Origin: a bacterium
GTDB taxonomy: Bacteria; Patescibacteriota; Minisyncoccia; Minisyncoccales; JAGGXC01
Direction of reading: 5' to 3'
Assembly (NCBI GenBank): GCA_021157625.1
Contig: JAGGWD010000001.1
Span: forward strand, 1 to 38,848
Length of the DNA: 38,848 nt
Position numbers and translations under genes: made by a program. The notes under the pieces are model-generated. The model had not been told where the DNA came from, ran no database searches, and saw only the letters and a program-made list of their open reading frames with translations. Of this stretch, positions 15,742 to 34,617 are shown piece by piece. How positions within the stretch are numbered: position 1 is the stretch's first letter; each line of letters begins with the position of its first letter.

Positions 15742-15782
15742 ATTAAAAATATAAAAAAGAGGGAGAGGTTATTTAAAGATCT

Positions 15783-17003
15783 CTAAGAAGTGATTTGTAG
15801 TGTTGTGTTGCTTTTTATCTGTCTCCAAGATGGAAATGCAATAAGAGAACTAACATCTCTCTTCCAATCCCCTGTCTGGAAAATCAAATTACATAGAAAT
15901 TCTTTGTCATTTTCTACATAGTTACAAAACACACATTTCTTGATCTTGCAGCGCTGAGGACAACCATTACAATTTATTTCTATAAATTTATGCTCACAGG
16001 ACATCATTTTGGACTTTCTCTCTCTTCTATCTTTCTCCTTTTGTCTTCTTTCCTCTAGTATCTTATCAATCACTTCCGATAAAGAAACTTCTTCCTTGAA
16101 ACTAAATTCCTGATATTTAAAAGTATCCAGAAGTTCTTGCTCTTTAGCAAAAAGTTCAAACGAAGGCAGATCTGTAAATCCAAGATAGTTGAGCGCTCTT
16201 ATCCACCTTTGTCTTAATTGCGGCTCTGCATCTCTATATTCCTCTGCTATTATACGACCATATCTGCCAAGATTTGCTCCTTCAGGAAGGAGTCCTTTTT
16301 TTTGCAATCGATTCATTTCTTCTAGATGCACTTTAATCATCCAAGAAGGTAACCAAATCTTTGTTACTCTGCCCTCAACCCAAAATCTAAGCAATCTGAA
16401 AAACCCGTAGTTTGAAGGAACCATCCTGCCTGCATCATAGCGAATGGTCTTCCAACCGCCACTTGTTAGCATACCAATCCCGTTAATGAGATCACGCCAG
16501 CACCGAGGAGTATAATATGCTATCCATTTTTCATTTTCAGGAACAAGAACCACCTCATTGAAAGTAAGATCCCGACTCCGAAGAATTTTTGCAAGCGTCT
16601 TTGTCTTTTTGCATTCATCCTTAAAACTTCCTCTTACGGGCTCAATATCTCTTCCATCAAAACGAATTTCTTTTTCTGAAATTACAGAAGAAAGCATTCC
16701 TTTCAAAGCAGTTTCTTTCTCCAGAAGATAATCTCTACTTTTTGCTAATGGCTGGGAATGCAACACAATGATATCAATATCATGTATTTTGTCTTCTATT
16801 TCCATTCTTTTTCTCTCTATATACTTTCCTACATTGATCATATTATGAAGCAATACCAATCGTGCCAACCCTCCTTTTATTGCTAAGTTTCTTTCTTGTC
16901 CAAGCCTCTTAAGAACCTCTCTCGCTATCTCAGGCACTATACTCAAATCCATCTCTGCTTTATATATTTTCATTTCTCTCCCCCTTTTTTCTATTTTTTT
17001 CAA
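15783..17003 (-). CDS. Divergent class II nucleotidyltransferase (CCA-adding/poly(A) polymerase head-like) with Cys-rich C-terminal tail
   Basis: AIKGGLAR...DIDI, RSRDLTFNE (cf. RRDFTINA), RDL..G, FRLLRF; C-terminal CEH..CNGC..C..CVFC..C. TTG start 5 nt after GGAGGTG. Confidence 0.6.
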   Translation of the reverse strand: MKKIEKRGREMKIYKAEMDLSIVPEIAREVLKRLGQERNLAIKGGLARLVLLHNMINVGKYIERKRMEIEDKIHDIDIIVLHSQPLAKSRDYLLEKETALKGMLSSVISEKEIRFDGRDIEPVRGSFKDECKKTKTLAKILRSRDLTFNEVVLVPENEKWIAYYTPRCWRDLINGIGMLTSGGWKTIRYDAGRMVPSNYGFFRLLRFWVEGRVTKIWLPSWMIKVHLEEMNRLQKKGLLPEGANLGRYGRIIAEEYRDAEPQLRQRWIRALNYLGFTDLPSFELFAKEQELLDTFKYQEFSFKEEVSLSEVIDKILEERRQKEKDRRERKSKMMSCEHKFIEINCNGCPQRCKIKKCVFCNYVENDKEFLCNLIFQTGDWKRDVSSLIAFPSWRQIKSNTTLQITS

Positions 17004-17035
17004 GGTACCACCTCCTATAACAATTTTGTATTTTA

Positions 17036-17063
17036 ATTATAACAGAAATAATTTATTTGTCAA
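17036..17063 (-). promoter_or_regulatory. Consensus sigma70 promoter of the nucleotidyltransferase-like gene
   Basis: TTGACA, 16 bp including TG, TATAAT. Confidence 0.75.
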
Positions 17064-17132
17064 CCCAGCTAATTTCAGGCTTCCAATTAAACAATTAAAT
17101 TTTGGAGCGATCTAATCTCTTAGTTTCCAATC

Positions 17133-17165
17133 AAAAAAGGCTCACTATTTCTATTTAAGTGAGCC
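17133..17165 (-). terminator. Intrinsic terminator of the Zn-ribbon ORF
   Basis: GGCTCACT...AGTGAGCC followed by TTTTTT. Confidence 0.75.
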
Positions 17166-17168
17166 AGA

Positions 17169-17438
17169 TTATTTAACCCTTTCTTGCTTTTTGAGTCTTT
17201 GCCCTTTCTGTTTCATTTTCTGGATTCGAGGAATTTTAAAAAGCATCTTGTCTCCTATATATTTCCAGTATTTTCCGCATTTTCTACATTTATGAAAACC
17301 GGTTTCTCTATCAAGATAAAGAAATCCATGGCACTCAGGACAGAACAGCGTCTTTGTTTTGCCGGCCACTTCTACTTTGCCTTCTTTTTCTTGCTCTTTT
17401 TTCTTTTTCTTTGGGTCTATTATTATACATATTTTCAT
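17169..17438 (-). CDS. Small basic Zn-ribbon protein (CPEC...CRKC)
   Basis: Two CxxC pairs; GGAGTG 6 nt before ATG 17438; own terminator. Confidence 0.6.
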   Translation of the reverse strand: MKICIIIDPKKKKKEQEKEGKVEVAGKTKTLFCPECHGFLYLDRETGFHKCRKCGKYWKYIGDKMLFKIPRIQKMKQKGQRLKKQERVK

Positions 17439-17456
17439 CCACATCACTCCATATTT

Positions 17457-17484
17457 TGAAAAAAAGGAGCTATGATTACTCCTC
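17457..17484 (-). terminator. Probable terminator after tRNA-Trp
   Basis: AGGAG...CTCCT hairpin followed by a T-run. Confidence 0.55.
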
Positions 17485-17490
17485 TCATGT

Positions 17491-17565
17491 TGGCGGGGGT
17501 GGCAGGACTCGAACCTGCAGGACCGGTTTTGGAGACCGACCGTTTACCAGTTAACGGACACCCCC
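17491..17565 (-). tRNA. tRNA-Trp(CCA), 3' CCA encoded
   Basis: GGGGGTG/CACCCCC acceptor stem, loop CTCCAAA, ends GCCA. Confidence 0.96.
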
Positions 17566-17661
17566 AAAAAAATCTTTAATTTTTCTTTTTTCTTTGTTTT
17601 ATATTACAGAAATTACAAAAATAATGCAAATATAAATCCAGTTTTTCTTTGTTCAAAGAAA

Positions 17662-17691
17662 TTGACAAATCTAATCTAAATATGTTATAAT
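17662..17691 (+). promoter_or_regulatory. Consensus sigma70 promoter of the inserted ORF
   Basis: TTGACA, 18 bp including TG, TATAAT. Confidence 0.75.
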
Positions 17692-17717
17692 AAATCTAAA
17701 AGGAGGTGAAAAGTATA

Positions 17718-17966
17718 TTGAGAAAATTATTGACTCTCTGTCCTCCACGAGATCTCGGACTAATAATAGTAACCCAAGGAGATCAATCCTGTTCTCATGA
17801 ATTCGAAGAAGTAAAATGGGATAGAGAACGATTTGGCCCTGATGTGGTAGATATGGATCCTGATCCTGGAGGAGCGATAGCTTTCCCAAAAGCCACTTAT
17901 AAATATCTTTTTCGTTGCAAGAAATGTGGAGCAGAAGTAATCAAAAGCGTTAGGGCACTAATCTAA
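17718..17966 (+). CDS. Small hypothetical protein with CxH...CxxC putative Zn-binding motif
   Basis: CSHEF...CKKCG; AAGGAGGTG 9 nt before in-frame TTG 17718; own promoter and terminator. Confidence 0.7.
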   Translation: MRKLLTLCPPRDLGLIIVTQGDQSCSHEFEEVKWDRERFGPDVVDMDPDPGGAIAFPKATYKYLFRCKKCGAEVIKSVRALI

Positions 17967-17992
17967 TCCTTTATTCTATTAAAATAAAATAA

Positions 17993-18020
17993 ATCTGCTC
18001 AAAAGAGCAGATCTTTTTTT
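17993..18020. terminator. Bidirectional terminator between the inserted ORF and rpmG
   Basis: ATCTGCTC-AAAAA-GAGCAGAT hairpin with a T-run on the + side and an A-rich left flank. Confidence 0.75.
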
Positions 18021-18064
18021 TAGAAGCATCCCAAATCCAACTCGACCCAAAATGTTCTTTTTTA

Positions 18065-18232
18065 TTATCTCTTTACTTCTTTATGAACCGTATGCTTTCT
18101 GCAAAACTTACAGAATTTCTTCAATTCTAACTTCTGCTCATGCAACTTCTTTGATTTATGAGTAAAATAATTAATTCTTTTACACTCCTGACACTGGAGT
18201 TTTACAAATGGTTTTTTCTTTTTCTTTGCCAT
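18065..18232 (-). CDS. rpmG: 50S ribosomal protein L33 (Zn-binding C+ type)
   Basis: LQCQECKRINY...LELKKFCKFCRKHTVHKE; start ATG 18232. Confidence 0.96.
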   Translation of the reverse strand: MAKKKKKPFVKLQCQECKRINYFTHKSKKLHEQKLELKKFCKFCRKHTVHKEVKR

Positions 18233-18247
18233 AATCTTATTTGCGTG

Positions 18248-18321
18248 AGCCTGGGAGGAGAATCGAACTCCTGACCTCCGCATTACCAGAGCGGTGCTCT
18301 AACCAACTGAGCTACCCAGGC
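18248..18321 (-). tRNA. tRNA-Thr(GGU)
   Basis: GCCTGGG/CCCAGGC stem, loop CTGGTAA, GTTCGATT. Confidence 0.95.
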
Positions 18322-18328
18322 AATCTAG

Positions 18329-18412
18329 TGGGCAGGGAGGGATTCGAACCCCCGAAGGCATGAAGCCACGTGGTTTACAGCCACGCCCGTTTGACCACTC
18401 CGGAACCTACCC
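18329..18412 (-). tRNA. tRNA-Tyr(GUA)
   Basis: GGGTAGG/CCTGCCC stem, loop CTGTAAA, long variable arm. Confidence 0.96.
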
Positions 18413-18500
18413 ATTTATCTCTGCTTATTTTACTATAGTAAATTTTATTTTTCAACAATCTCTTGAAAGAAAATCAACTTTCAATCCATAAAAACGTTAT

Positions 18501-18920
18501 TTATTTCTTATCTTTTTCATCACTCAAAACACCTCTTTTTATCTCTTTAATTTCAACTTTTTTGGGCTTAATTTCCTTTTCCAAATATTCTAATGCTTTC
18601 TCGGGTTGGGAGTGATCACCGCAAGTAAAAATGTCTACGGCTAAATAATTATATTCTGGCCAATAATGCAAAGCAATATGACTTTCTGCTAGCAATACAA
18701 CTCCCATTATTCCTTGAGGCCAAAACTTATGAACAGCAACCTTTAATGGAGTATTGTTGGCTTCTTTTGAGGCTTCAACCAAAAGCTTTTCCATCTCTTC
18801 CTTATCATCAATATTTTTCCCATCCCAAAATTCGGCAATCAAATGAACCCCAGCATATTTTACTGTTTTATGAGAAAATTGATTGTTCCACAAAATAGAA
18901 CTCTTTGTTTTTTTGATCAT
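18501..18920 (-). CDS. speD: S-adenosylmethionine decarboxylase proenzyme (short SpeD/SpeH type)
   Basis: G.HLIAE, HKFWPQG, LAESH cleavage site, WPE, DIFTCG. Start ATG 18920. Confidence 0.93.
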   Translation of the reverse strand: MIKKTKSSILWNNQFSHKTVKYAGVHLIAEFWDGKNIDDKEEMEKLLVEASKEANNTPLKVAVHKFWPQGIMGVVLLAESHIALHYWPEYNYLAVDIFTCGDHSQPEKALEYLEKEIKPKKVEIKEIKRGVLSDEKDKK

Positions 18921-19034
18921 ATTGATTGAAGCCAATTGCTTAGTCTCTATTTTTGAAAAAATAGAGACCTCTTATTTCTCTTTCAAGAAATAAGAAAAAA
19001 CAAAGAGCGAAACAAAAAGCAATTGGCAGTTAAT
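18921..19034 (-). ncRNA. Candidate structured cis-regulatory RNA in the speD leader (three-way junction)
   Basis: An 11-bp closing stem (19017-19027 / 18931-18941) encloses two hairpins (18970-18995 and 18942-18969). Confidence 0.55.
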
Positions 19035-19110
19035 TTCTTTAAATACTCAACCTTTTTTTATCACAAAAATAAATATGGGTCAACAAAAAATTTTAGCTTT
19101 TGTTTTCACT

Positions 19111-19791
19111 TTATTCAATAATCTTTTGATGTTTCTTTCGCCACTCTTGAATTCTTTTGTGATCTCCGGAAAGTAACACTTTAGGGACTTTCCATTCTAC
19201 TCCTTTTTTGGGAGAAAACACGGCTGGTCTTGTATACTGAGGATATTCAATAAACCCTTTTTCTTTTTTGCCTTTCGTTAAAGCTGTTCTTTCTCTAAGG
19301 AACTCTTTTTTTCCTAATACTCCAGGAATTAATCGGGCCACTACTTCAATCACTACCATAGCTGGCAGTTCTCCTCCCATTAAATCATAATCTCCTATAG
19401 ATAATTCCATGTCTGCAAGATATTTGGCTACACGCTCGTCTACTCCTTCATACCGGCCACAGATAAAGATAATCTGATTTAACTTCGACAACTGATATGC
19501 AATTTTTTGAGTAAATTTTTTTCCACGGGGAGTAAAAAGAATAACTTTTCTTTTCTTCCTTTTAGGAATACTCTTTATCGCTTTATATATAGGTTCAATC
19601 TTCATCACCATCCCAAACCCTCCTCCAAAAGGCCGATCATCAACTGTCTTTCTTCTATCAGAAGTAAAATCTCTTAAGTTATGAATTTCTACTTTAATCA
19701 ATTTCTTTTTTATAGCTTTGTTTATAAGCGACTCTTTAAAGTAAGAGTCAAAAATTTTAGGAAATATAGTTATTATATCGAATCTTATCAT
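19111..19791 (-). CDS. trmD: tRNA (guanine-N1)-methyltransferase
   Basis: VDDRPFGGG, CGRYEGVDER, SIGDY.L.GGE, EYPQYTRP, VLLSGDH. Confidence 0.97.
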   Translation of the reverse strand: MIRFDIITIFPKIFDSYFKESLINKAIKKKLIKVEIHNLRDFTSDRRKTVDDRPFGGGFGMVMKIEPIYKAIKSIPKRKKRKVILFTPRGKKFTQKIAYQLSKLNQIIFICGRYEGVDERVAKYLADMELSIGDYDLMGGELPAMVVIEVVARLIPGVLGKKEFLRERTALTKGKKEKGFIEYPQYTRPAVFSPKKGVEWKVPKVLLSGDHKRIQEWRKKHQKIIE

Positions 19792-19808
19792 AAGTTAAAA
19801 ACCAGAAA

Positions 19809-19838
19809 ACCGTGCTTTCTTTACTATAATAGCACGGT
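19809..19838 (-). other. Stem-loop between khpA and trmD
   Basis: ACCGTGCT...AGCACGGT inverted repeat followed on the minus strand by TTTCT. Confidence 0.5.
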
Positions 19839-19867
19839 CTTCCGGAGCCTGTAAACTTTATTAAAGC

Positions 19868-20197
19868 TTACAGTTTAAGATCTTCTAGTCCCTTATCTGC
19901 GTCTTTGGACTCTTCTGTCTTTTCTTGAGTGCTTTTAGCAGCACCAGTCGGCTCTGCAATCTTGAGATTCACACGAGCCCTAGATTTAAGTCCAACAATC
20001 CTAACTAGATTTCTAATAGCTCTTACAGTTGCACCCTGACGACCAATCACCTGTCCCATATCTTCGGGGTTTACTTTCAAAGTAAGTAAAACACCCATTT
20101 CATCTACTGTTCTTTCAATCTTTACATCCTCAGGGTGATCAACTAAAGATTTGACAATGTATTCAAGAAATTCCTTGTCTTTTGCTTCTTTTGCCAT
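19868..20197 (-). CDS. khpA: KH-domain RNA-binding protein KhpA (YlqC/UPF0109)
   Basis: EFLEYIVKSLVDHPEDV, DMGQVIGRQG, AIR; next to trmD. Confidence 0.92.
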   Translation of the reverse strand: MAKEAKDKEFLEYIVKSLVDHPEDVKIERTVDEMGVLLTLKVNPEDMGQVIGRQGATVRAIRNLVRIVGLKSRARVNLKIAEPTGAAKSTQEKTEESKDADKGLEDLKL

Positions 20198-20339
20198 ATT
20201 TCTTATTAGAGCTAATTTCTTTCAGTTTTGTCTTTTCTAGTAGCTCGACCTTTTTCTTCCGACCCTAGAAATCAAGGAATCGGGATATTAAGTTGATAGT
20301 AGCTACTATTTTCCTATCTTACTTATCTAAAATAATTTG

Positions 20340-21824
20340 TCAATACTTTTGCAAAAGTTTTTTAAATACTTCTTCTGCCTTTTGAGGATCTACTTTGCCA
20401 CTTGTCTCTCTCATCAACTGACCGATAAGAAACTGGAGTGCATTCGTTTTCCCACTTTGATAATCCTGGACAGCTTTTTGATTAACGGAGAGAATTTTCT
20501 GCGCTAGTTTTTGAATTTCATCTAAATCTCGAATTTGGATCAACTTTTTCTCTTCAATAATGTGAGAAGGATCAGCACCCGTTTTAAACATTTCAGCTAA
20601 TACAACTTTGGCTATTCTTGAAGAGATTCTATCCTCATAAATCATAGTAATGAATTCCGCAAAATTTTCTGGAGTAATCAAAAAATCCTCCCCTGTTATT
20701 TCTGCTTTCTTTAATAACCCTTGAAGATCACAAAGAATATAATTAGCACAAAGTTTAATCAACTTTTTCTCTTCTAGACTCGAAAGTTTTCTCTTAAACT
20801 CTACTGACTTTGTCCAATTTTTCAACTCTGAGACGACTTTCTCAAAATACTCTCCCAGATCTTTATTTTTTATAAATACTTCTACTTCTTTTTCTTCTAG
20901 ACCATATTCTTTTTTAAACCTTTCTCTCCTCTGAGAAGGGAGTTCTGGAATTTCAGCTTTGAGTTCTTGAAGATATTCCTGAGTAATCAAAAGAGGAGGT
21001 AAATCAGGCTCGGGAAAATATCGGTAGTCATGAGAATATTCTTTTTCTCTTTGACTTTCTGTCACTTCTTTATCTTCGTACCATCCTCGAGTCTCTTGAA
21101 TAACTTCACGACCCGATTTTAAGACATTGATTTGTCTTTGAATTTCGTATTCTATTCCTTTTTCTAACGATCTAAAGGAATTAAGATTTTTAATCTCTAC
21201 TTTGGTACCTAGTTTATCTCCTTTGCTTACCGAAACATTAGCCTCCACTCTCATTTGTCCTTTCTCCATATCAGCGCCTGAGACATTCAAATATCTTAAA
21301 ATCAACTGAAGCTCTTGCGCAAACTTACGTGCCTCTTTTGCTGATTTCAAATCAGGCTCAGTGACCAACTCCATTAACGGAATACCTGCTCTATTGAAAT
21401 CCACAAGCGAATATCTTCCCTTCTCATCATGGATAAGTTTTCCTGTATCCTCTTCAAGATGAATTTCTCTTATTCTGATTTTCTTTCCATTTATTTCTAA
21501 ATATCCATTCTTGCATAAAGGAATATAAAACTGACTAATTTGATAACCCTTAGGAAGATCAGGATAAAAATAACTCTTTCTATCAAATTTTGAATATGAA
21601 GAAATATGACAATTAAGAGCAAGACCTACTTTTATTGTCTTTTTAACTGCTTCCTCGTTAATAACTGGAAGCACGCCCGGATGACCCATACAAACAGGAC
21701 AAATATTGATGTTTGGATGACGTTCATTTGGGTCATTCGGGCAAGAACAAAACATCTTGGATTTTGTATCCAACTCCACATGAATCTCAAGACCTATTGT
21801 TGGTTGAAATCCATCTTTTATCAT
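20340..21824 (-). CDS. gatB: Asp/Glu-tRNA amidotransferase subunit B
   Basis: IGLEIH, FDRKSYFYPDLPKGYQISQ, HLEEDTGK, EIKNLNS, DYRYFPEPD. Confidence 0.98.
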   Translation of the reverse strand: MIKDGFQPTIGLEIHVELDTKSKMFCSCPNDPNERHPNINICPVCMGHPGVLPVINEEAVKKTIKVGLALNCHISSYSKFDRKSYFYPDLPKGYQISQFYIPLCKNGYLEINGKKIRIREIHLEEDTGKLIHDEKGRYSLVDFNRAGIPLMELVTEPDLKSAKEARKFAQELQLILRYLNVSGADMEKGQMRVEANVSVSKGDKLGTKVEIKNLNSFRSLEKGIEYEIQRQINVLKSGREVIQETRGWYEDKEVTESQREKEYSHDYRYFPEPDLPPLLITQEYLQELKAEIPELPSQRRERFKKEYGLEEKEVEVFIKNKDLGEYFEKVVSELKNWTKSVEFKRKLSSLEEKKLIKLCANYILCDLQGLLKKAEITGEDFLITPENFAEFITMIYEDRISSRIAKVVLAEMFKTGADPSHIIEEKKLIQIRDLDEIQKLAQKILSVNQKAVQDYQSGKTNALQFLIGQLMRETSGKVDPQKAEEVFKKLLQKY

Positions 21825-22492
21825 CTTTGTTTCTTAATTGCTTCTCTCATTATCTGAACTCCTGAGCTTGTTCCTACAATATCAGCCCCTGCTTGTACCA
21901 TCTTTCTTAAATCTTTTAGAGTTCTTATCTTTCCAGCAGCCTTAATCAAAAGACCAGGTGCTCCTTCTATCATCAATTTTAGATGTCTGGCTTTCTCCTC
22001 AAGTTCTCTATGTTCTAAAGGATCCTTTTGTGTGGCAGTCTTAACACATATTGCTCCTGCTTTTTTCACTAACCAAGAAGCTTTTTTGATCTCTTCATCT
22101 GTAAGATAACCAGAGCCAATAATTACTTTGGTAGGAAGGATCTTACAAATTTCTTTCAAATCTTTTAATATCTTGTCGTATCTTTCATATTTTAAGTCAA
22201 CTATATTCATTACTATATCAATTTCATCAGCTCCATCCTTTTTTGCTTTTCGACATATCTTCATTCTTTCTGAATGAGAGCTCTGACCCATAGGAGGATC
22301 AACAAGAACAACAACTTTAATATCTGTATCTTTAAGCTCTTGTTTTGCCAATCTGACCCATTGTGGATTTACACATACTCCTCGAAAAGCGTATTTTATT
22401 GCCTCTTTGCAAGTCTTTTTAATATCTTTGGCTTTAGCTTTGGGATCAATGTTGGTATGATCTATGATTTTTGCTATTTGGCTCAGTTTCAT
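21821..22492 (-). CDS. deoC: Deoxyribose-phosphate aldolase (divergent)
   Basis: IDHT, GVCVNP, GADEIDIVMN, KVII, VKTAT, IKAAG.IR, GTSSG. Confidence 0.85.
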   Translation of the reverse strand: MKLSQIAKIIDHTNIDPKAKAKDIKKTCKEAIKYAFRGVCVNPQWVRLAKQELKDTDIKVVVLVDPPMGQSSHSERMKICRKAKKDGADEIDIVMNIVDLKYERYDKILKDLKEICKILPTKVIIGSGYLTDEEIKKASWLVKKAGAICVKTATQKDPLEHRELEEKARHLKLMIEGAPGLLIKAAGKIRTLKDLRKMVQAGADIVGTSSGVQIMREAIKKQR

Positions 22493-22524
22493 ATTTTTGT
22501 AATTTAATTATTTTTAATTTATTT

Positions 22525-23163
22525 TCATAATTTTAGTTTTAATTCTTTATTGATTATTCCGAGACACTGCTCTGAAACTTCTTTTATTGAATTCTCTCCA
22601 TCAACCACTCTCCATCGAGAATAAATTTGTTTCTTAGCCAGATTATCATAAAAATTACACAACTCTCCCAAAAGCTTTCTATCTCTCTCGTTTCTATCTA
22701 GACTTTTCTTCTCTTTTAATTTTCTCTTAATCGAAGTAGAAGGAGAAATTTTCAGATATAAAACAAGATCAGGTTTGGGTAGTCCAAATATCTTGGCCAA
22801 ACTCAAAGCTTTTCTTTGAGAAAATCCTCTCAATCCTTGATAAGCAAGTGTAGAGGTAAAATAGCGATCTGATATCACAATCTTTCCTTCATTTAGCCAT
22901 TGATTGATTTTTTCTTTATCTTTTACAAAATCAATAAAATACAAGAGAAATTGCACAGACACAGAAAAATCATATTGACAGTGGAGATAACGATGAATCA
23001 ATCTGCCAATAGGGCCTTTGTAGTCGGGATAACATATTCTTATAACTGGTTTTTTATTTTTCTTTAAATACTCAAAGAGCCAACGACTTATACTCTCGGT
23101 ACCTGCTCCATCTATGCCTTCAAAAACAATAAATTTACCCCTTTTTTTCTTCTTCATTTTCAT
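22525..23163 (-). CDS. tmk: Thymidylate kinase-like protein with degenerate P-loop
   Basis: FIVFEGIDGAG, SDRYFTSTLAYQ, PKPDLVLYL. Walker A Lys is absent (GAGTES). Confidence 0.8.
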   Translation of the reverse strand: MKMKKKKRGKFIVFEGIDGAGTESISRWLFEYLKKNKKPVIRICYPDYKGPIGRLIHRYLHCQYDFSVSVQFLLYFIDFVKDKEKINQWLNEGKIVISDRYFTSTLAYQGLRGFSQRKALSLAKIFGLPKPDLVLYLKISPSTSIKRKLKEKKSLDRNERDRKLLGELCNFYDNLAKKQIYSRWRVVDGENSIKEVSEQCLGIINKELKLKL

Positions 23164-23256
23164 TTTTCTTATTTTAGCACATTCCCAAAAATAAAAAAGT
23201 GAACTCTCTTAACATAGTACATTGTATTGAAAATATAATTTTGATAAAATTAATTA

Positions 23257-24861: not shown

Positions 24862-24868
24862 CAAAAAT

Positions 24869-26647: not shown

Positions 26648-26688
26648 GGCCAAAAAACGCCCTAAAGATAAAATAATAATTTCAAAAT

Positions 26689-27492
26689 TTACTTATAAAA
26701 GATTTGATTTCCAAATCTTAAATCAATATATTCCAGATTCTTTCTCTCTTGAGGAGAAATTTTTTCTTTCAGTACTAGATCAAGGTTAAAGACCTGTCTT
26801 GAAATATCATCATCTAAATTAAAGTAAATTTCCCAACCTTCTTGAGTTAGCACATTTGCTCTTTTGCTACTGACAATTTTAATGGAACGAAGCAAAATCT
26901 CTTTTTTTTCCAATTCTTCTTCTATTTCTGCAATAAGTGAGCCTAATCCTTTTTGGATTATCGTTCTTCCTATCTTTAAATCTTTATCTCTCTCTGGAGG
27001 AACAATTTCAGGCCATTGATTTCTTTGATTTTTTACTTTTTCAAATACTACTCCTTCCTTGTCTATAAAAAAATAATTATTGTCTTTTTTAACAACTCCT
27101 ATAGGTTTTCTTTCTCGAACAGAAATGATTAACTTATCTGGAAATTGTCTTTGAATAGAAACTTCGCCGATTTGAGGAAAATAATTTAGTATTTCTTCAT
27201 CTAAACGCTCCAAATTGGCAAGAAAAATACTTCTTGAATCCCAGAATATAATTTTTTGGGGAAGATAGAGCTCTACTAAGTTTTTAATATTTTCCGTCTT
27301 TACTTTTTGGTTTCCTTTAACCTGGATTTCTTTAATTTGGAAAAGGCAATAAAAACAGACTAAGTAAAAAATTATCAAAAACGCTATCAAAAAAAGTCCA
27401 ACAGCCCAAAAGAATCGATTTTTCACAATTTGAATTTTTCTTTTTTGCCTCCATCGTTTCCTAAATTTTTTAACACTTTGACTTTTTTTCAT
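26689..27492 (-). CDS. ftsQ: Cell division protein FtsQ/DivIB
   Basis: Basic N-terminus, TM helix, POTRA domain (I.VKGN, FPDKLII.V.ERKP), YIDLRF. Confidence 0.88.
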   Translation of the reverse strand: MKKSQSVKKFRKRWRQKRKIQIVKNRFFWAVGLFLIAFLIIFYLVCFYCLFQIKEIQVKGNQKVKTENIKNLVELYLPQKIIFWDSRSIFLANLERLDEEILNYFPQIGEVSIQRQFPDKLIISVRERKPIGVVKKDNNYFFIDKEGVVFEKVKNQRNQWPEIVPPERDKDLKIGRTIIQKGLGSLIAEIEEELEKKEILLRSIKIVSSKRANVLTQEGWEIYFNLDDDISRQVFNLDLVLKEKISPQERKNLEYIDLRFGNQIFYK

Positions 27493-27525
27493 AAATCCTT
27501 ATAACTTATTAAAGGAGGTGGTTCT

Positions 27526-27951
27526 TTGAAATGGGAATATCCCTCAGAAGAAATAATACATATAAAGCAAGTCAAAATTGGAAAAATCAATGCAATTGTA
27601 GCTCTCTCAGGGGACTCTCAAGATTCTGAACCAGAACTAAACAATCAAGAAATTGCTAATTTTGTCAAAAGACTTTATCAAGCAACTAGTGTGCCTCTTA
27701 TTCTTCAATGGGAGATTGAAGAGTACCTAAAAGATATTCCGAAGGCCATGGTTATCCATCCGTATTCTATCAAGGAAAAAGATCTTGATACCTATGAAGT
27801 ATTATATCAAGCAAAGCAGTTCTGCAACAAATTCAAATGGAAGAATATATTACTGGTAGCCCATCCTGCTCATTTACCAAAAGCTCGACTGGCTGCCAAG
27901 CAATTGGGCTTTAGAGTTTACATCCCATACGAACTTCTCACTTATAGATAA
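27526..27951 (+). CDS. DUF218/YdcF-like protein (compact)
   Basis: LDTYE, ILLVAHPAHLPKA....K.LG; AAAGGAGGTG 5 nt before TTG. Confidence 0.6.
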   Translation: MKWEYPSEEIIHIKQVKIGKINAIVALSGDSQDSEPELNNQEIANFVKRLYQATSVPLILQWEIEEYLKDIPKAMVIHPYSIKEKDLDTYEVLYQAKQFCNKFKWKNILLVAHPAHLPKARLAAKQLGFRVYIPYELLTYR

Positions 27952-27958
27952 GAGGTTA

Positions 27959-28987
27959 TCAAAAACCTCTTTTCTTTTTTCTTAACTTCTCAATGATCCA
28001 GTTAAACCAATATCTTGAATCCAGCACCAAATCCTGGGTTTTTACATATTCCTTTCTCCAGCCACCAAAACCTTTCTTAAACAAAGTCAATCCCCACCAT
28101 GGATGCTTCCTTGAAGCGTTATCAGGCGCAATCCCCCAAAAATTATATAGCCTACAACCTCTCCTTTTTGCTTCTTTTATTACCTCCCATTGTAAAAGAT
28201 AGGAAACAGGAATTTTTGGATATTTCAAAGAACTGGCCCCATGATGATAAAAACCAATTCCTTGCCAATAAACTATAATTGCTGAAGCAAGAATCTCGTC
28301 TCTGTATTTTCCAAAAAAGATAGAGATCTGATTGTCAGAACTAAAACACAAGAATTCTTTCTTGAAATAATTCAAAGAAAAAGGAACAAATTTGTGACGC
28401 TTCACTACCTCTTGATGAATTTCATTAAACACTTCTATGTCTTGTAATTTCTGGCTTTGATATATCTGAATATCTTTGTTTTTTAATCCCTGCCTAATTA
28501 AATAGCGAGTCGTCTTTCGCATTCCTGCTAAAAGTTCTTCTTCTGAGGATGAGATATCTAATTCCCAAGTCACTTCTGGATGCATATGAATAGGAGCTTC
28601 TCTAAATCCAATCTTCTCAAAGATTCTTATATTTTCATCATTCCTCTCGCAAATAGGACTTATTCTTATGAAACTGCATTTTTGGCTCCTGGCAAGTTTC
28701 TTCAATTCGGTCATCAAAGATACCAATACAGATTCAAGATCTTTTTTATTCAAAACAACAGGTCCGTGTGGCACAAATAAAAAAGTACCTCGTTTTGCTT
28801 TAATTCTTATCACTAAAGATTCTGCAACTAGATCATTATCTTTATACAAACCAAAACGCCATATTTTATGGCCCATTGCTTTTTGGAACTCTCCCCAATT
28901 CCAACTCTGAAGAAATGTTTTCTCCTCAACATTAAAAAGAAATCTCTCCCATTCATCTTTATTTTCTATTTCCTTTATTTCAAACAT
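27959..28987 (-). CDS. FemAB/FemX-family peptidoglycan peptidyltransferase
   Basis: FLQSWNWGEF, PHGPV, MRKTTRYLIR, YHHGAS, LLQWE, YNFWG, GLTLFKKGFGG. Confidence 0.93.
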   Translation of the reverse strand: MFEIKEIENKDEWERFLFNVEEKTFLQSWNWGEFQKAMGHKIWRFGLYKDNDLVAESLVIRIKAKRGTFLFVPHGPVVLNKKDLESVLVSLMTELKKLARSQKCSFIRISPICERNDENIRIFEKIGFREAPIHMHPEVTWELDISSSEEELLAGMRKTTRYLIRQGLKNKDIQIYQSQKLQDIEVFNEIHQEVVKRHKFVPFSLNYFKKEFLCFSSDNQISIFFGKYRDEILASAIIVYWQGIGFYHHGASSLKYPKIPVSYLLQWEVIKEAKRRGCRLYNFWGIAPDNASRKHPWWGLTLFKKGFGGWRKEYVKTQDLVLDSRYWFNWIIEKLRKKKRGF

Positions 28988-29058
28988 TTTCTATAGCTCC
29001 AGAAAATAAATGAAGGTTGATTTAAGCATTAAGCTTTCCAAAGAAGCATTTTAATATT

Positions 29059-30324
29059 CTACATCTTTTTGAGCAGCTTTGCTATTCGTCTCGCATCTTC
29101 TTCAGAAATATTTATGTGGGTAGGTAAATTAATTATTCTTTTTGCTATATCCTCTGCGTTTTTGCACTCTCCCACCCTATATCTCATTTTCTCCAAATCA
29201 GTATCAGGAGGTACAATAGGAGTTTTTCGCCAACCATCGTCTAGTAGAATTTTTTTCTTTCTGGCTTCTCTCAAGATCTTATCTGTATCTTGGCCTTTCT
29301 TTATTAAGATTGGAAATCTCATAAAAATCCTTTTCGTGCCTTTCAGGCCTTCTTGAAATTCAAATCTATCCCTAAGTTCCTCTATATATATCTTAGCAAT
29401 TTTCTCTCTGTGATTGTTAAACTTCTCTAATTTCCTAAATTGATTAAGTGCCAAAATAGCTAAGGCATTAGGAAATTTCTTAGGAAAGTAAGAGGTAAGT
29501 TTCCCTCTTTTCTCTTCTTTGGAAACTGCCTTTGATAAAACCATTGTTAACTGAAGCGTATTTAAGATAATTTTACCAAAAGAAGGAAAGCGATAGGCGG
29601 GCAAGACCAAGTAATTTACCAAAACGGGATGGAGCAGTTGCTGAAGAATCCAAGATGACAGAGGAAAACTACATTTTTTCTGAAAATCCCTCACCTTTTT
29701 TCCTATTTCTGGATCATTGCTCACCACCATCCCTCCATAAACCGAAGAAATTATTTTATCTCTGCCAAAGCTAAAGAAAGCAGCTTTTCCAAACGTTCCT
29801 ACTTTTTTTCCTTTATACTCTGCGCCCAAGGAGTGAGCACAATCTTCGATTAAAATTAATTTATTTTTGTCGCATATTTTCAGAACCTCATCCATCCGTG
29901 CTGGCTGTCCAAAAGTATGCTGAACTACCACTACTTTGCTTCTCTCTGTAATTTTGTTTGCTAGATCTTCTGGATCTAAATTGAAACTCCTATCACAATC
30001 TACAAAAACAGGCCTTAGACCAAAATAAAGAATTGGGTTTACAGCAGCATTGCAAGTAAAAGCCTGAAGCAAAACTTCATCTCCTTCTTTTAGATCTAAA
30101 GACTTCAAAATAGCCAAAAAAGCTGACCTTCCACTATTAAAAGATACTGCTTCTTTTGCTTCAAAATAATTTTTAAATTCCTGCTCCAGAACAGAAATCT
30201 CTCCTCCTTTTCTCCACTTTCCCGGAGAAAAGATTAACTTCAATGCCAACTTTATATCATCTTCTTCGGTATTAGGAGAAAGAGAGATTGAAATAGGATA
30301 GGTGTTGAAAATTTTAAATTTCAT
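29059..30324 (-). CDS. DegT/DnrJ/EryC1/StrS PLP-dependent aminotransferase
   Basis: FNSGRSA, QHTFG, IEDCAHSLG, FSFGRDK, INLPTH. Confidence 0.92.
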   Translation of the reverse strand: MKFKIFNTYPISISLSPNTEEDDIKLALKLIFSPGKWRKGGEISVLEQEFKNYFEAKEAVSFNSGRSAFLAILKSLDLKEGDEVLLQAFTCNAAVNPILYFGLRPVFVDCDRSFNLDPEDLANKITERSKVVVVQHTFGQPARMDEVLKICDKNKLILIEDCAHSLGAEYKGKKVGTFGKAAFFSFGRDKIISSVYGGMVVSNDPEIGKKVRDFQKKCSFPLSSWILQQLLHPVLVNYLVLPAYRFPSFGKIILNTLQLTMVLSKAVSKEEKRGKLTSYFPKKFPNALAILALNQFRKLEKFNNHREKIAKIYIEELRDRFEFQEGLKGTKRIFMRFPILIKKGQDTDKILREARKKKILLDDGWRKTPIVPPDTDLEKMRYRVGECKNAEDIAKRIINLPTHINISEEDARRIAKLLKKM

Positions 30325-30351
30325 GATATACTCAACAAATGAGGTGGTAAT

Positions 30352-30654
30352 TTGACAAATAAATACATCCAGAAAACGAAGGATTTATTAAGAATAGGTA
30401 TCAAAAGACTATTGGATCTAGTCGCAATAATGGTAGGAGCAATATTTTTCTTTATTGGATGCATGGCTCTTTATGTATGGAATCCACTTATATTCTCGGC
30501 CATCACAAGAGGAATAATCGGAGCAATACTAACTGGCATAATAGCAGGTCTTTGTTTTGTGAGCTTAGGGGTCTGTTATGAGACAGCAATAACAGTAAGC
30601 TTTTTGCTAGCTCTTATCGTTTTCTTATTCTACCAGTTCTCCAGGATGAAGTAG
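30352..30654 (+). CDS. Small three-TM membrane protein
   Basis: Three hydrophobic segments; GAGGTG 5 nt before TTG; TTGAAA-16-TATACT promoter (30305-30332); own terminator. Confidence 0.7.
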   Translation: MTNKYIQKTKDLLRIGIKRLLDLVAIMVGAIFFFIGCMALYVWNPLIFSAITRGIIGAILTGIIAGLCFVSLGVCYETAITVSFLLALIVFLFYQFSRMK

Positions 30655-30677
30655 AACTTCAAAAATAATCTTTTTGA

Positions 30678-30705
30678 GAGAGGCTTTGAATAAGCCTCTT
30701 TTTTA
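30678..30705 (+). terminator. Intrinsic terminator of the three-TM ORF
   Basis: AGAGGCTT...AAGCCTCT followed by TTTTT. Confidence 0.7.
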
Positions 30706-32274
30706 TTAGAGCAATTCAAAAGCTCTATATAACTCTTTGGGAACTCTACTCTCAAGAAGGATTACATCCTCCCTTCCATTGAAACTCTTGAGTTTTTTAA
30801 AGATATCTTGAGATCTTTCCAAGAACAAAATTCTTTTTTCTTGCATCCCCTTTTCTATTGCTCCCCTTTTAATTGAATCAAAATAATCTTTGGTAGTAAT
30901 GATTGCAAGATCACAGACATTAGCTATCTCCTCCCCTATTCTTTTATGAACTGCATCAGCTTCTGGTCCTAATTCTATCAAACATGGCATAACGATTGCT
31001 TTCTTTCCCTTCCACACTTTGAGATAATCAAGATGAGCAAGCACTCCATCAGGATTTGCAGAGTAAGTAGCATCAACAATATTAAATCCTTTTATTTTAA
31101 TCAATTCCATTCCTCGCTTAAGTGGTTTAATCTTTCTACATGCCATGGATATTTCCTCCAAACTCATTCCCATTTCTTGAGCAACCAGAATTGCCATCAA
31201 AATATTATCTATCCAGTGTTTTCCTAATAGGTTAATTTTGAATTTTGATTGAGAGCTTTTTGTTAAAACTTTAAAAGAAATAAAATCTTTACCTACTTCA
31301 ATATCTTCTGCCCAAATATCTCTATTAGTCATTTTTTTGGAAATCTTTGTTTTCTCAAAAAGATCTCGACAATATTGATTATTTCCATTAAAAACTGCTA
31401 GCCCATCAGGGGGAAGACTTTCAATCAGTTCATATTTTGTCTTTATGATACTCTCAAGCGAACCAAAAGTGGCCAAATGCTGTTGATTTATACCTGTTAA
31501 AATCCCAATTTTTGGTTTTGCAATATCGGTCAAAAGTTTAATGCCCCCTTGATTATAAGCCCCCATTTCACAAACAAAAATTTGGTGACTCTTTGATAAA
31601 TCATTAAGTATGCACTGAGAAATACCTACTTCAGAATTTTGATGCTCTTTAGTTCTCAGTACTCTAAATTTCTCCGATAAAATATCAGCAAGAAACTCCT
31701 TGGTAGATGTTTTACCGTAACTTCCAGTTATTCCAACCACTATCAGATCCTTGAATTTATTTCTTTTATCTGTGGCTTTTGCAATAATTTTTTTTCTCCA
31801 AGAAATAGCAATAGGTTCTACACTCAATACTAATCCAGAAACAAATAAAGGAGCTAGAAGATCTAGAGTTATTAGGCAATGATAGAAGAATCTTTGAGCA
31901 ATTGGTGAAAGGACTAGTAAACTTCCAAAAACAATCTCAAAAATAATTCCTACACACAATATCAAGAAGGTTTTTTTGGTAATCACAGGCATCAGGAGTT
32001 TTTTTCTGAATAAGGCAAAAAAAACAAAAAGGGCTTCTCCAAAAAATACAATTACAGTTAAATAAGAAAATAAAATAGTTCTGAAAAAAAGCCCAATTAA
32101 AACAAACAATTTAAGAAAAACAATTTTTGTTCTAATCAATTTTTTACCCTTCTCTGTATGAAAATGTGCCTTAAATCTTCCTATATGATATTCTTTTAAT
32201 TGCCAAAGCCAAACCCACAAAAATAACTTTTTTGTAAAAACAATCATCCATAAAATAAGAGCTACGATTTGCAT
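30706..32274 (-). CDS. murF: MurF-like Mur ligase with N-terminal multi-TM extension
   Basis: GITGSYGKTSTKE, CEMGAY, QHLATFGS, DATYSANP, IELG; N-terminal WQLKEY plus TM helices. Confidence 0.8.
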   Translation of the reverse strand: MQIVALILWMIVFTKKLFLWVWLWQLKEYHIGRFKAHFHTEKGKKLIRTKIVFLKLFVLIGLFFRTILFSYLTVIVFFGEALFVFFALFRKKLLMPVITKKTFLILCVGIIFEIVFGSLLVLSPIAQRFFYHCLITLDLLAPLFVSGLVLSVEPIAISWRKKIIAKATDKRNKFKDLIVVGITGSYGKTSTKEFLADILSEKFRVLRTKEHQNSEVGISQCILNDLSKSHQIFVCEMGAYNQGGIKLLTDIAKPKIGILTGINQQHLATFGSLESIIKTKYELIESLPPDGLAVFNGNNQYCRDLFEKTKISKKMTNRDIWAEDIEVGKDFISFKVLTKSSQSKFKINLLGKHWIDNILMAILVAQEMGMSLEEISMACRKIKPLKRGMELIKIKGFNIVDATYSANPDGVLAHLDYLKVWKGKKAIVMPCLIELGPEADAVHKRIGEEIANVCDLAIITTKDYFDSIKRGAIEKGMQEKRILFLERSQDIFKKLKSFNGREDVILLESRVPKELYRAFELL

Positions 32275-32279
32275 ATTTT

Positions 32280-32975
32280 TTATTCCTCAATAAAATTTAT
32301 AATCTTTTGAGACAGGAGATCGGGACATTCCAGGTAGGGAGCATGTCCGATATTCTTCAAAACTTCCAGCCTAGAGTTTTTTATTTTTTCATTTATCAAA
32401 TAAGCATCAAAAATAGGAGTAATCTTGTCTTTGTCTCCCCATATGATTAAAGTTTTGGTCTTTATCTGAGAAAGACAAGGTCTAAGATCTTCTTTAACGA
32501 CTTCTTTTAGGGTTTCTTTCATAACTCCTTTTGCTTGAAGATAGTCTGGGTTTCTTACAACAAATTTATAAAAAAATCTACGCAGGGTATTATAGTATGG
32601 TAAAAAAGAAAATTTTTTAAAAAAGGGGACAAAGCAAGAAAGAAGCTTCTTTTTTGGTTTTATACCTGCCGCAGAAACCAATATCAATCCTTTTAACCTT
32701 TCTGGAAATTTTTGAGCAAATTTTATAGAAATCCTTCCTCCAAACGAATGTCCTAGCAAAAAAAATTTTTCTTTATCTTTAGAAAACTCCCAGAACCAAT
32801 CAACATAATCTTTAAGAGACCATGGCTTTTTGAGTTTCTTTCCTTCTCCCAAACCAGGAATTGCAGGAATAATTACTTCTATTCCTTTGTCTTCGAGTTT
32901 CTCTTTTACTTGCTTCCATTTCTCTCTTGAACTTCCCCACCCATGGAGAATAATAATCGTTTGACAATCTTGCAT
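32280..32975 (-). CDS. Alpha/beta hydrolase
   Basis: LHGWG, GHSFGG, IWGDKD, GH catalytic-triad motifs. Confidence 0.93.
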   Translation of the reverse strand: MQDCQTIIILHGWGSSREKWKQVKEKLEDKGIEVIIPAIPGLGEGKKLKKPWSLKDYVDWFWEFSKDKEKFFLLGHSFGGRISIKFAQKFPERLKGLILVSAAGIKPKKKLLSCFVPFFKKFSFLPYYNTLRRFFYKFVVRNPDYLQAKGVMKETLKEVVKEDLRPCLSQIKTKTLIIWGDKDKITPIFDAYLINEKIKNSRLEVLKNIGHAPYLECPDLLSQKIINFIEE

Positions 32976-32989
32976 AATTGTTTTATAAT
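32961..32989 (+). promoter_or_regulatory. Perfect sigma70 promoter of the inserted membrane ORF
   Basis: TTGACA-17-TATAAT, overlapping the hydrolase start codon region on the other strand. Confidence 0.75.
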
Positions 32990-33007
32990 CTAAAATGGAG
33001 GGATAAA

Positions 33008-33334
33008 TTGAAAAGAAAAAAATATTTGGAGAGAAAAATCGAAATTTTTATAGAGTTGCTGAGGCCCGATCTAGATCCAGAAGTTGTGGAAAGATGTGCG
33101 CATGAGTGTGCTAGATTAACTCGCTTCATTCTTCTGATTGGTTTATTGTTCTCAATAGGATCTATAGCATATGGAACGTTTATAATGAAATTCTTTTTCC
33201 CAAACAACATTCCGTTCCAAAGCATAATGCTATTGAATCTTCCTTGGTTGATAGGCTTTATCCTCGGCCCAGCAATCTATAAAATTTTCCTGCCCAAGTA
33301 TAAAGAAATATATAACAAATATTTTATGCGCTGA
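33008..33334 (+). CDS. Small two-TM membrane protein
   Basis: GGAGG 6 nt before in-frame TTG 33008; two hydrophobic helices. Confidence 0.7.
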   Translation: MKRKKYLERKIEIFIELLRPDLDPEVVERCAHECARLTRFILLIGLLFSIGSIAYGTFIMKFFFPNNIPFQSIMLLNLPWLIGFILGPAIYKIFLPKYKEIYNKYFMR

Positions 33335-33342
33335 GAGTATTA

Positions 33343-34617
33343 TCAGCGCTTTCTTTTTTTAATTACACTAAAGTTCAAATATTTTCTAAGAACAGATGGT
33401 ACTTTAATACTTCCATCTTTTTGCTGATAATTCTCAATGATAGCAATAAGCGTTCTTCCAATAGCAAATGCCGTTCCGTTGAGAGTATGAACAAATTTAA
33501 GTTTATTGGATTTTTTGTCTTTATAACGGATATTTAAACGGCGCGCCTGAAAATCAGTACAGTTAGAAGTCGAATGAGTTTCTCTCCAACGGCCCTGTGA
33601 TGGCATCCAGGCCTCGATATCGTATTTTGCTGCTGCAGGATCACCTAGATCTCCGGTACAAATCTCAACCACTCTATAGGGAATCTTCAAAAGTTTCATC
33701 AATCTTTCTTCCAAACTCAGAAAGAATTGATGTTCGTAAACAGATTTCTCAGGATGAGCAAAACTAAACATCTCTACTCCATCAAATTGATGAACCCTAA
33801 AAATACCCCACGTCTCCCTTCCATAAGACCCTGCTTCTCTTCTAAACCATGTAGAGAAACCTACATATCTTATAGGTAACTGTTTTTCTTCAAAAATCTC
33901 TCCTGCGTGCATAGCGCCTATAATTTGCTCTGTTGTTCCTGCTAAATACAAATTATCTTTCTCAATATAATAAATCTCATCCCTACCTCTTTCTACATAT
34001 CCCATTCCTCTCATCATTTCAGGTTTTATCATTACAGGAGTAACAAGAGGTATGAAACCTTCTTGGATCAATTGATCAAAAGCAAAATTAATTAATGCGA
34101 ATTCTAAAAGAACTGCCTCTTTTTTAAGAAAACCAAACCGGGTCCCCGCTACCTTTGCTGCTCTTTTTATATCTATCAAATCAAGTTCTTGCGCTAACTC
34201 CAAATAATCACGGGGAGGAAAATTGAATTCGGGTTTTTTCCCAACCTCTCTCAATACAACGTTCTCTGATTCATCTTTCCCTACAGGAACACTTTCCAGC
34301 GGCAAATTAGGAACCTGTAATAATAACTCATTTAGTTCTTTATCAATTTTATTAAATTTTTCTTTAAGAGCATCTTCTTTTTTATCGATCTTTTTCATTT
34401 CAGAAATAATTTTCTTTTTTTCTTGCTGAGATTTAACGGAAGCAATGATTTTGCTTGCTTTATTCTTTTCTGCACGGAGTTTTTCTAATTCTGTGAGCAT
34501 TTCTCTTCGTTTCTTGTCTAACTCAATAATTCGATCAATATCAACTTCCACACCTTTATTACGACACCCTTTTTTAACTAATTCTTTATTTTCTCGAATA
34601 AATTTAATGTCAAGCAT
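33343..34617 (-). CDS. serS: Seryl-tRNA synthetase
   Basis: MLDIKFIREN coiled coil, FRREAG, RVHQF, SNCTDFQARR, HTLNGT. Confidence 0.97.
   Translation of the reverse strand: MLDIKFIRENKELVKKGCRNKGVEVDIDRIIELDKKRREMLTELEKLRAEKNKASKIIASVKSQQEKKKIISEMKKIDKKEDALKEKFNKIDKELNELLLQVPNLPLESVPVGKDESENVVLREVGKKPEFNFPPRDYLELAQELDLIDIKRAAKVAGTRFGFLKKEAVLLEFALINFAFDQLIQEGFIPLVTPVMIKPEMMRGMGYVERGRDEIYYIEKDNLYLAGTTEQIIGAMHAGEIFEEKQLPIRYVGFSTWFRREAGSYGRETWGIFRVHQFDGVEMFSFAHPEKSVYEHQFFLSLEERLMKLLKIPYRVVEICTGDLGDPAAAKYDIEAWMPSQGRWRETHSTSNCTDFQARRLNIRYKDKKSNKLKFVHTLNGTAFAIGRTLIAIIENYQQKDGSIKVPSVLRKYLNFSVIKKRKR

Follow-up and report, generated by a model that had tools for sequence, protein, structure and literature searches.

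Conserved Shine-Dalgarno motifs without an rRNA partner, and an RNA with an anti-Shine-Dalgarno loop, in a lineage of Patescibacteriota

What keeps long Shine-Dalgarno (SD) motifs in front of the genes of a bacterium whose 16S rRNA cannot pair with them? The question is raised by contig JAGGWD010000001.1 (assembly GCA_021157625.1), a 38.8-kb contig whose 38,848 nucleotides (nt), taken as a whole, are called the window here; it is contig C19 of the genome under study (G000; 610 kb, 22 contigs, 35% GC, rated 95% complete), carries six accessory gene cassettes led by SDs, and breaks off at its end within a minus-strand bacterial 16S rRNA gene. G001 and G002 are genus mates of G000, and the other G numbers denote relatives. 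A first-pass annotation of the window had described the six SDs; all six sites read as it gave them, and five of the six starts are indeed TTG. Ordinary genes of the window have ATG starts and A/T-rich upstream regions. The six motifs belong to a small class that extends over the genome and is conserved in relatives, and the lineage encodes an RNA that presents an anti-SD in a hairpin loop; the SDs may be relics kept as pairing sites for this RNA.

A conserved motif class without an rRNA partner

The sole 16S rRNA gene of the assembly continues after the conserved GGAUCA with AUUUAUUUUAG, not with CCUCCUUA, and thus lacks CCUCC. A probe for the 3′ end of 16S matches in 26 relatives; the tail can be read in 19 of them, and CCUCC is absent from all 19, the tails being differing A/U-rich remnants. 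The readable set includes two single-contig closed genomes (G036 and G037), each with one tail-less 16S and with SD-type sites nonetheless. The earlier claim that this 16S is unable to pair with the SDs is thereby borne out. In computed duplexes, the G000 tail reaches -3.9 kcal/mol with the SDs, against -3.49 +/- 0.96 for shuffled tails, 58 of 200 shuffles being equally low; wobble pairing between the SDs and the degenerate tail was rejected, as shuffled tails do as well. In 10 relatives, neither the 16S genes nor the sequences beside them hold a conserved anti-SD-like site, internal or flanking, and none is found in the partial 16S of G000 (positions 803-1533), its flanks or its spacer. Intergenic anti-SD-like words in G000 are all antisense of SD sites, of tRNAs or of 23S rRNA, in searches whose expressions demanded the A of UCACCUCC; the loop RNA described below, which lacks that A, lay outside their reach.

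Genome-wide, 570 of 619 first starts are without any SD, in agreement with what had been said of the core genes, and SDs of at least 4 nt are depleted at starts (49/619, against 923/6172 at internal in-frame starts), so that the genome shows no overall SD enrichment. For SDs of at least 8 nt the counts are 7 of 619 first starts and 10 of 6172 internal starts, and for those of at least 9 nt they are 5/619 and 0/6172 (p = 6e-6). The distribution is bimodal: the large majority of genes have none, and about 20 of 623, spread over 11 contigs, have canonical matches of 7-11 nt, up to AAGGAGGTGAT, a length that suits the seed of a small RNA (sRNA) better than a ribosomal SD. Within genes GGAGG is not avoided (it occurs 1266 times, where its permutations have a median of 606).

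In a hand tabulation of 24 sites, GAGG stands 5-12 nt before the start codon, with a mode of 7 (12/24), which is the canonical placement of an SD, and 6-61 nt, with a mode of 7-9, separate the -10 box from the SD. The motif was also considered as an operator or initially transcribed element; a spacing to the -10 box that varies so widely, beside a fixed spacing to the start, led to the rejection of this idea.

The split of all genes by SD presence, which the first-pass annotation had proposed, gives a class with more non-ATG starts, normal codon statistics that match the rest of the genome, and mixed functions. Non-ATG starts occur in 11/20 genes of the class and in 101/603 others (p = 1.6e-4); a consensus promoter lies within 90 nt upstream in 7/20 and 28/603, respectively, and the class is accompanied by short leaders. 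Where an ordinary gene has a promoter, the end of the -10 box usually lies 5-14 nt from the ATG (14/28), which implies leaderless mRNAs. GC is 0.378 in the class and 0.350 in other genes, and GC at third codon positions (GC3) 0.312 and 0.265 (p about 0.001). The families represented are an SPFH protein, GNAT, OMP decarboxylase, CdsA, a NosD-like protein, DUF488 and an HbpS-like protein; the rest comprises several small membrane and zinc-ribbon proteins, several small CxxC proteins, and many without a family.

Conservation of the SDs among relatives that lack the anti-SD, the second check proposed, was followed in orthologs of nine gene families. An SD of at least 5 nt is kept in 24/34 orthologs of the class, as scored by script, against 2/29 flanking control genes (p = 1.6e-7), and in 13/23 orthologs outside the genus; the misses are 7/8 order-level CDP-OH homologs (about 32% identity), G010 for the 406-residue gene of the first cassette, and two cases in which the script failed to locate the start. 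G001 has two spots masked with N. Within the genus the motif is kept in three species at 60-78% protein identity; before the 406-residue gene, where the leaders are unalignable, the three read AGGAGGTGG, AGGAGGTGAT and AAGGAGGTGG, the motif being kept in G001 and G002. Three other genera have the shorter forms GAGGTGA, AGGTGA, GGAGG and AGGAG. The open reading frame (ORF) starting at 30352 is conserved in position in G002, G004, G005 and G006, with GGAGGTGA, AGAGGTGAT, AGAGGTGA and GGAGGTGGT, at a protein identity between genera of merely 27-32%, and all copies share the succession of extended -10, GAGGTG, 7 nt and start; orthologs of the ORF at 33008 in G001, G002 and G006 keep GGAGG(G/T). 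Both ORFs are conserved in position across genera and are thus not absent from the syntenic sites of relatives. The SD of the archaeal-type transcription factor gene TFB is kept in 4/4 lineages that bear it. For the SPFH gene no ortholog was found in the five family genomes searched, and window ORFs 17169, 17718 and 18501 have no match in two genus loci (L108/L109). To judge from these orthologs, selection on the SD motifs appears visible.

Beside the class stand open frames that begin with ATC or ATA, 7-8 nt after GGAGGTGAT and behind consensus promoters, with no ATG, GTG or TTG available (Table 1). The ATC start is conserved between G000 and G002, the example being a 69-residue Cys-rich ORF whose G002 ortholog also has ATC. 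Standard gene callers would miss or misplace such starts.

An RNA with an anti-SD loop

Outside the window, in the leader of a gene for a CDP-alcohol phosphatidyltransferase resembling archaetidylinositol phosphate synthase (AIPS-like), lies an RNA of about 150 nt. The 213-nt spacer before this gene folds into a rod (z = -9.8), formed by a 30-bp closing stem and two hairpins; one hairpin loop, which is left unpaired, is GAUCCCUCCUUA, the canonical 16S tail minus one A, and it copies that tail beyond the CCUCC core (AUC...CCUCCUUA). The RNA is present, with a TTGACA-17-TATAAT promoter and a nearly unchanged loop, in 7/7 family genomes. In the alignment 96.5% of cells are paired, and 17 pairs have changed on both sides, a number reached by 0/500 shuffles and compared with 3-5 in slid controls. 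A covariance model matches it in 43/151 genomes of the order, including both closed ones. Among the 35 best-strand matches, 30 have a CCCUCCU-type loop, carried on 22 different stems; a promoter is recognized by regular expression in 27/35, a U-run closes about half of them, and many pass directly into an SD-led ORF; such an ORF begins within 150 nt downstream in 16/35. The RNA is single-copy in G000 and absent from the window. Rfam gives no match at the gathering score, only miRNA-like chance matches (E >=0.05).

Computed duplexes between the loop and the SD class average -11.0 kcal/mol, against -2.3 for 599 other genes, and the six window cassettes all lie between -7.8 and -15.6 kcal/mol. 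The SD of the cassette at 33008 (GGAGGGAU) is the exact complement of the loop sequence AUCCCUCC, and its duplex with the loop (-15.6 kcal/mol) is stronger than that with the canonical tail (-11.8).

Word counts alone are uninformative without the anti-SD status of each genome: the loop 11-mer has 57 sites in 47/151 genomes against about 32 control sites, and AGGAGGTGA occurs 15 times in G000 against 6 in reversed controls, a modest excess in both cases. In one genome (G338:C10, locus L139) two copies of the RNA lie about 700 nt apart on the minus strand, at 662-790 and 1501-1640.

Readings of the motif class

We favour the reading, which has about an even chance of being right, that the SDs are relics kept as pairing sites for the loop RNA and are no longer docking sites of the 16S; selection would have kept them in a small regulon whose accessory genes are self-contained and for the most part monocistronic. 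When the 16S lost its anti-SD, SDs would have decayed except where they were also a pairing site of the loop RNA, which would explain the all-or-nothing distribution of the motif, its unusual length and its conservation, as well as its link with strongly promoted, separately regulated accessory genes. The loop would pair with the motif of 7-11 nt about 7 nt upstream of the start codon and so cover the initiation region, and this pairing would set the translation or the stability of the mRNAs of the class. That loop and SDs meet in the cell, and in which direction the RNA acts, we infer; by analogy with known anti-SD-motif sRNAs, repression would be the most likely outcome. As an SD-led ORF often follows it directly, the RNA probably has an action in cis besides that in trans.

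Several observations weigh against this reading. Most SDs (GGAGGUGAU) have a better fit to the canonical 16S tail (-15.1 kcal/mol) than to the loop (-11.0), in which the U has to bulge; energies of -8 kcal/mol or lower with the loop are also attained by 30/599 other genes. The covariance model does not find the RNA in G021, G027 or G010, although SD-led TFB genes are present in G021 and G027; G021 and G010 have no more than loose candidate hairpins, and G027 lacks even these. Recognition of the UUG, AUC and AUA starts behind the motifs is left unexplained by simple repression. The relatives are kin, so that tests across them overstate significance, and the gene set is our own simple gene call (623 genes, 92% coding).

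The start codons bear on an alternative in which the RNA is a trans-acting, detachable anti-SD, an adaptor or activator, either bound to the 30S subunit or docked on it in the form of a ready-made SD/anti-SD helix, so that ribosomes without an anti-SD would pick starts by SD spacing on chosen short-leader mRNAs. The strictly canonical spacing of SD and start, the excess of non-ATG starts (11/20 against 101/603), and a loop that mirrors the 16S tail past the CCUCC core all agree with this, as do the conserved ATC and ATA codons exactly 7 nt after GAGG, which would need positive help in a genome where the initiation factor IF3 is present. Such a device is, however, without known precedent, the RNA is undetected in 108/151 genomes of the order under Infernal's stricter filters, and the SD-led ORF that often follows the RNA fits a cis leader; we regard this alternative as unlikely.

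Just as unlikely, in our estimate, is that the SDs have no function and are simply what remains of donor expression signals brought in with genes acquired horizontally. Acquisition from SD-using donors, as the first-pass annotation had proposed, does hold for two SD genes outside the window, for which sequence similarity shows an archaeal origin: TFB shares 57-60% identity with TFBs of Thermoplasmata and other archaea, and the AIPS-like protein has as its top NCBIfam match the archaetidylinositol phosphate synthase equivalog (152 bits, below the cut-off of 180), its homologs with an organism name coming from archaea of the ANME-1, Alkanophagales and Methanosarcinales type, at 44-50% identity. 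The slightly higher GC and GC3 of the class, the cassette at 27526, an insert common to G002 only, and the shorter SDs of other genera point the same way. Simple recent transfer, however, is not what the orthologs suggest: the motif is kept in three species and, shortened, across four genera while leaders and proteins diverge, standing at syntenic genes with 27-57% protein identity and unalignable leaders; coding statistics match the rest of the genome; the 406-residue family is lineage-restricted, with only 11 homologs in the searched database; and all four TFB-bearing lineages retain the SD.

TFB sits after infB-rbfA in two genera, is syntenic in G003, and occurs in 4/41 genomes of the order. 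The AIPS-like gene hints at archaeal lipid use.

More doubtful again is that the cell's own translation machinery recognizes the motif through another receptor, be it a protein or another rRNA site. Canonical spacing would fit, as would a motif conserved even in G021 and G027, where the RNA is not detected, but the rRNA searches turned up no complementary site, a protein could hardly account for 11 nt that match the canonical tail exactly, and GGAGG is not avoided within genes.

The first-pass annotation had noted that an anti-SD-bearing rRNA copy would remove the paradox; none is found in the sequences examined. That a second 16S of this kind is merely missing from them gains some room from the contig break inside the 16S, the 95% completeness, and the G001 and G002 assemblies, which are without any 16S, but is very unlikely: GATCACCTCC has zero occurrences in the 610 kb of G000; none of 11 ATCACCTCC sites examined (10 loci, five family genomes) is a 16S tail, most being the reverse of promoter-linked SD sites, with one in 23S and one that looks coding; the closed genomes G036 and G037 combine a single tail-less 16S with SD-type sites; and independent contigs from runs of three studies have the identical tail joined to an identical spacer, although such contigs cannot reveal a second rRNA copy.

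The suggestion of the first-pass annotation that the transcripts are addressed to the SD-competent ribosomes of a host is scarcely credible. The SDs match the canonical tail best, archaeal gene traffic is evident, and one SD gene is an archaeal TFB in a genome where no TBP was found; this gene is the one specific point in favour. Against the suggestion, the promoters are bacterial sigma70 promoters, several SD genes code for polytopic membrane enzymes of lipid synthesis that the cell would require in its own membrane, no route of mRNA transfer is known, and the genome itself encodes a candidate partner for the motif.

Loss of the anti-SD in a subgroup of Parcubacteria is already published, with SD helices thought not to form (Tsurumaki, Saito, Tomita & Kanai 2022, RNA 28:1041, PMC9297842). 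The situation there is the same in that the 16S is without CCUCCU after helix 45, as a lineage-wide trait, and most genes lack an SD; it differs in that the passages compared make no mention of a conserved strong-SD minority or of an anti-SD-bearing RNA. In the survey of 128 organisms without CCUCCU by Amin et al. 2018 (PMC6107228), the loss generally goes with the lack of a genome-wide SD signal, as it does in G000; a minority SD class is not reported in the part compared, and a class of 3% would have been invisible to it because the survey sought the most enriched motif per genome. We found no publication in which a remaining class of SDs, or an RNA with an anti-SD loop, is described for the candidate phyla radiation (CPR); new here are the SD-led genes as a target class, the retention of their motifs in orthologs, the geometry and start codons of these genes, and a genome-encoded loop RNA as putative partner. 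Anti-SD loss in CPR had been read as no use of SDs, and a conserved exception with a testable partner can now be set beside this.

The C-rich loops of RsaE/RoxS and RNAIII resemble the anti-SD motif of the alpha-r14/NfeR1 sRNAs. In the latter, known from rhizobia, an ultraconserved anti-SD motif is presented in loops on variable stems, and occlusion of the ribosome-binding site silences mRNAs (PMC10746234). The loop RNA shares with them a C/U-rich anti-SD motif unpaired in a hairpin loop, freely differing stems, a predicted sigma70 promoter of its own and a predicted pairing with the translation-initiation regions of several mRNAs, which here is computed only. It is not homologous to them (no Rfam match), has one such loop where they have three, and is often fused upstream of an SD-led ORF; as the ribosome is without an anti-SD, there is no competition with the 16S, and the sites would be relics. 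Bacteroidetes are known for the autoregulation of bS21. Initiation of the Bacteroidetes type (PMC7797042) is similar in that most genes have no SD and are A-rich upstream while a few special genes keep strong SDs, and different in that the anti-SD is present but sequestered there and absent from the rRNA gene here.

Should the RNA repress, the class would amount to a compact regulon, controlled after transcription, in organisms that have very few regulators; its accessory genes code for membrane and zinc-ribbon proteins, an archaeal-type TFB and lipid enzymes that came from archaea. Should it activate, no earlier case of an anti-SD supplied in trans would be known, and were it a detachable anti-SD, start selection on the class would hinge on an RNA that the cell can switch. 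Either way the survival of relic SDs would be explained, gene callers should expect non-ATG starts including ATC and ATA, and the evolutionary loss of SD-dependent initiation becomes testable within one lineage.

The window cassettes and other features

The six cassettes are self-contained units (Table 1). Four are on the plus strand among minus-strand genes, and four were correctly said to have terminators of their own, terminator-like hairpins following the units at 17003, 17718, 27526 and 33008. The claim of near-consensus sigma70 promoters is likewise sustained, by three matches of 12/12, one of 10/12 with TG at the cassette at 30352, and TTGACT-17-TATAAC at 27526. The three perfect matches, which belong to the cassettes at 17003, 17718 and 33008, are the only ones between 15500 and 33500; promoter-like sites are not enriched in the region as a whole (63 against 56.2 +/- 7.8 in shuffles).

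Table 1. Coordinates and signals of the features discussed; locations are window positions unless a contig of G000 is named.
Feature	Location	Strand	Details
Cassette 1, whole unit	15723..17063	-	406-residue ORF 15783-17003, TTG start at 17003
Cassette 1, signals		-	promoter TTGACA-16-TATAAT 17063-17036; SD AGGAGGTG 17016-17009, 5 nt to TTG; terminator-like hairpin 15741-15723
Cassette 2	17169..17450	-	GGAGTG 17450-17445, 6 nt to ATG at 17438; 89-residue Cys-rich ORF
Cassette 3	17662..18012	+	promoter TTGACA-18-TATAAT 17662-17691; 82-residue ORF 17718-17966; terminator-like hairpin 17993-18012
Cassette 3, SD		+	AAGGAGGTG-9-TTG at 17718; full match AAGGAGGTGA at 17700-17709
Cassette 4	27477..27971	+	promoter TTGACT-17-TATAAC 27477-27505; 141-residue ORF 27526-27951; terminator-like hairpin 27950-27971
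Cassette 4, SD		+	AAAGGAGGTG-5-TTG at 27526; full match AAAGGAGGTGG at 27511-27521
Cassette 5	30305..30654	+	extended -10 promoter 30305-30332; SD GAGGTG 30341-30346, 5 nt to TTG at 30352
Cassette 6	32961..33349	+	promoter TTGACA-17-TATAAT 32961-32989; 108-residue membrane ORF 33008-33334; terminator-like hairpin 33328-33349
Cassette 6, SD		+	GGAGGGAT 32997-33004; GGAGG-6-TTG at 33008
16S rRNA gene, 3′ part (model positions 803-1533)	38136..38848	-	sole 16S in the G000 assembly
Anti-SD-loop RNA, ~150 nt	G000:C20 ~21460-21611	-	outside window, in leader of AIPS-like gene
CDP-alcohol phosphatidyltransferase (AIPS-like)	G000:C20:20794-21432	-	locus L036; outside window
TFIIB/TFB, archaeal-type	G000:C1:3375-4316	-	Pfam E 7.6e-47; locus L040; outside window
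ATC/ATA frames	G000:C16 ~9740-9950; G000:C1 ~22340-22537	-	loci L126, L128, L131, L132, L133

The 406-residue protein of cassette 1 has invariant GG..R and DxD motifs and a C-terminal Cys/His cluster; its model (pLDDT 81; Foldseek E = 4e-4, TM about 0.3-0.37) suggests a nucleotidyltransferase fold of the CCA-adding/poly(A)-polymerase/TENT5-like type, which is a lead and not a firm assignment. Only three of its homologs carry a source name, and these are labelled merely 'bacterium' or 'hypothetical protein'. Cassette 2 lies just downstream of a tRNA gene and that gene's hairpin and has the weakest of the six sites, with GGAGTG before an ORF of 89 residues and no ortholog in the two genus loci examined; the ORF (17169-17438, minus strand) has a weak match to the TFIIB zinc ribbon (E 2.5e-4), below the cut-off. 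The 82-residue protein of cassette 3 belongs to no Pfam family. Cassette 4 is a true accessory insert: it is present in G002 at 74% identity, with AAGGAGG-TTG, and absent from the syntenic spot in G001, G004, G005 and G006. Cassette 5 encodes a membrane ORF of 100 residues with three hydrophobic segments. Its ortholog in G006 (C14, locus L107) reads TTA where the start codon would stand, after GGAGGTGGT-ACT; either the start is non-standard, the sequence is in error or the copy is dead.

Behind the 16S, the spacer (window 37950-38135, minus strand) has a family-conserved GUCGAC and a long hairpin, probably a processing stem, and contains a second hairpin, CUUGAGGAGGGC-GUAA-GCCUUCUUCAGG.

Among further candidates, three sites with an SD but no start codon were considered as sense-strand anti-SD RNAs, and two of them were rejected, one being coding and one a real gene with an ATC start; a surplus of A/U-rich 5-mers complementary to the tail before ordinary genes was set aside as inseparable from AT-richness. 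A frameshifted prfB (RF2), sought as a probe of SD recognition, was not found in G000. Directly after rpmE (G000:C12 ~3021-3780, plus strand, locus L111) lies a short release-factor-like ORF that begins in the middle of the PCRF domain, the usual N-terminal part being absent. The infC gene (G000:C11 ~2320-2830, minus strand, locus L134) has no ATG or GTG upstream of its conserved N-terminus, and its start is likely ATT, the classical autoregulatory codon of IF3.

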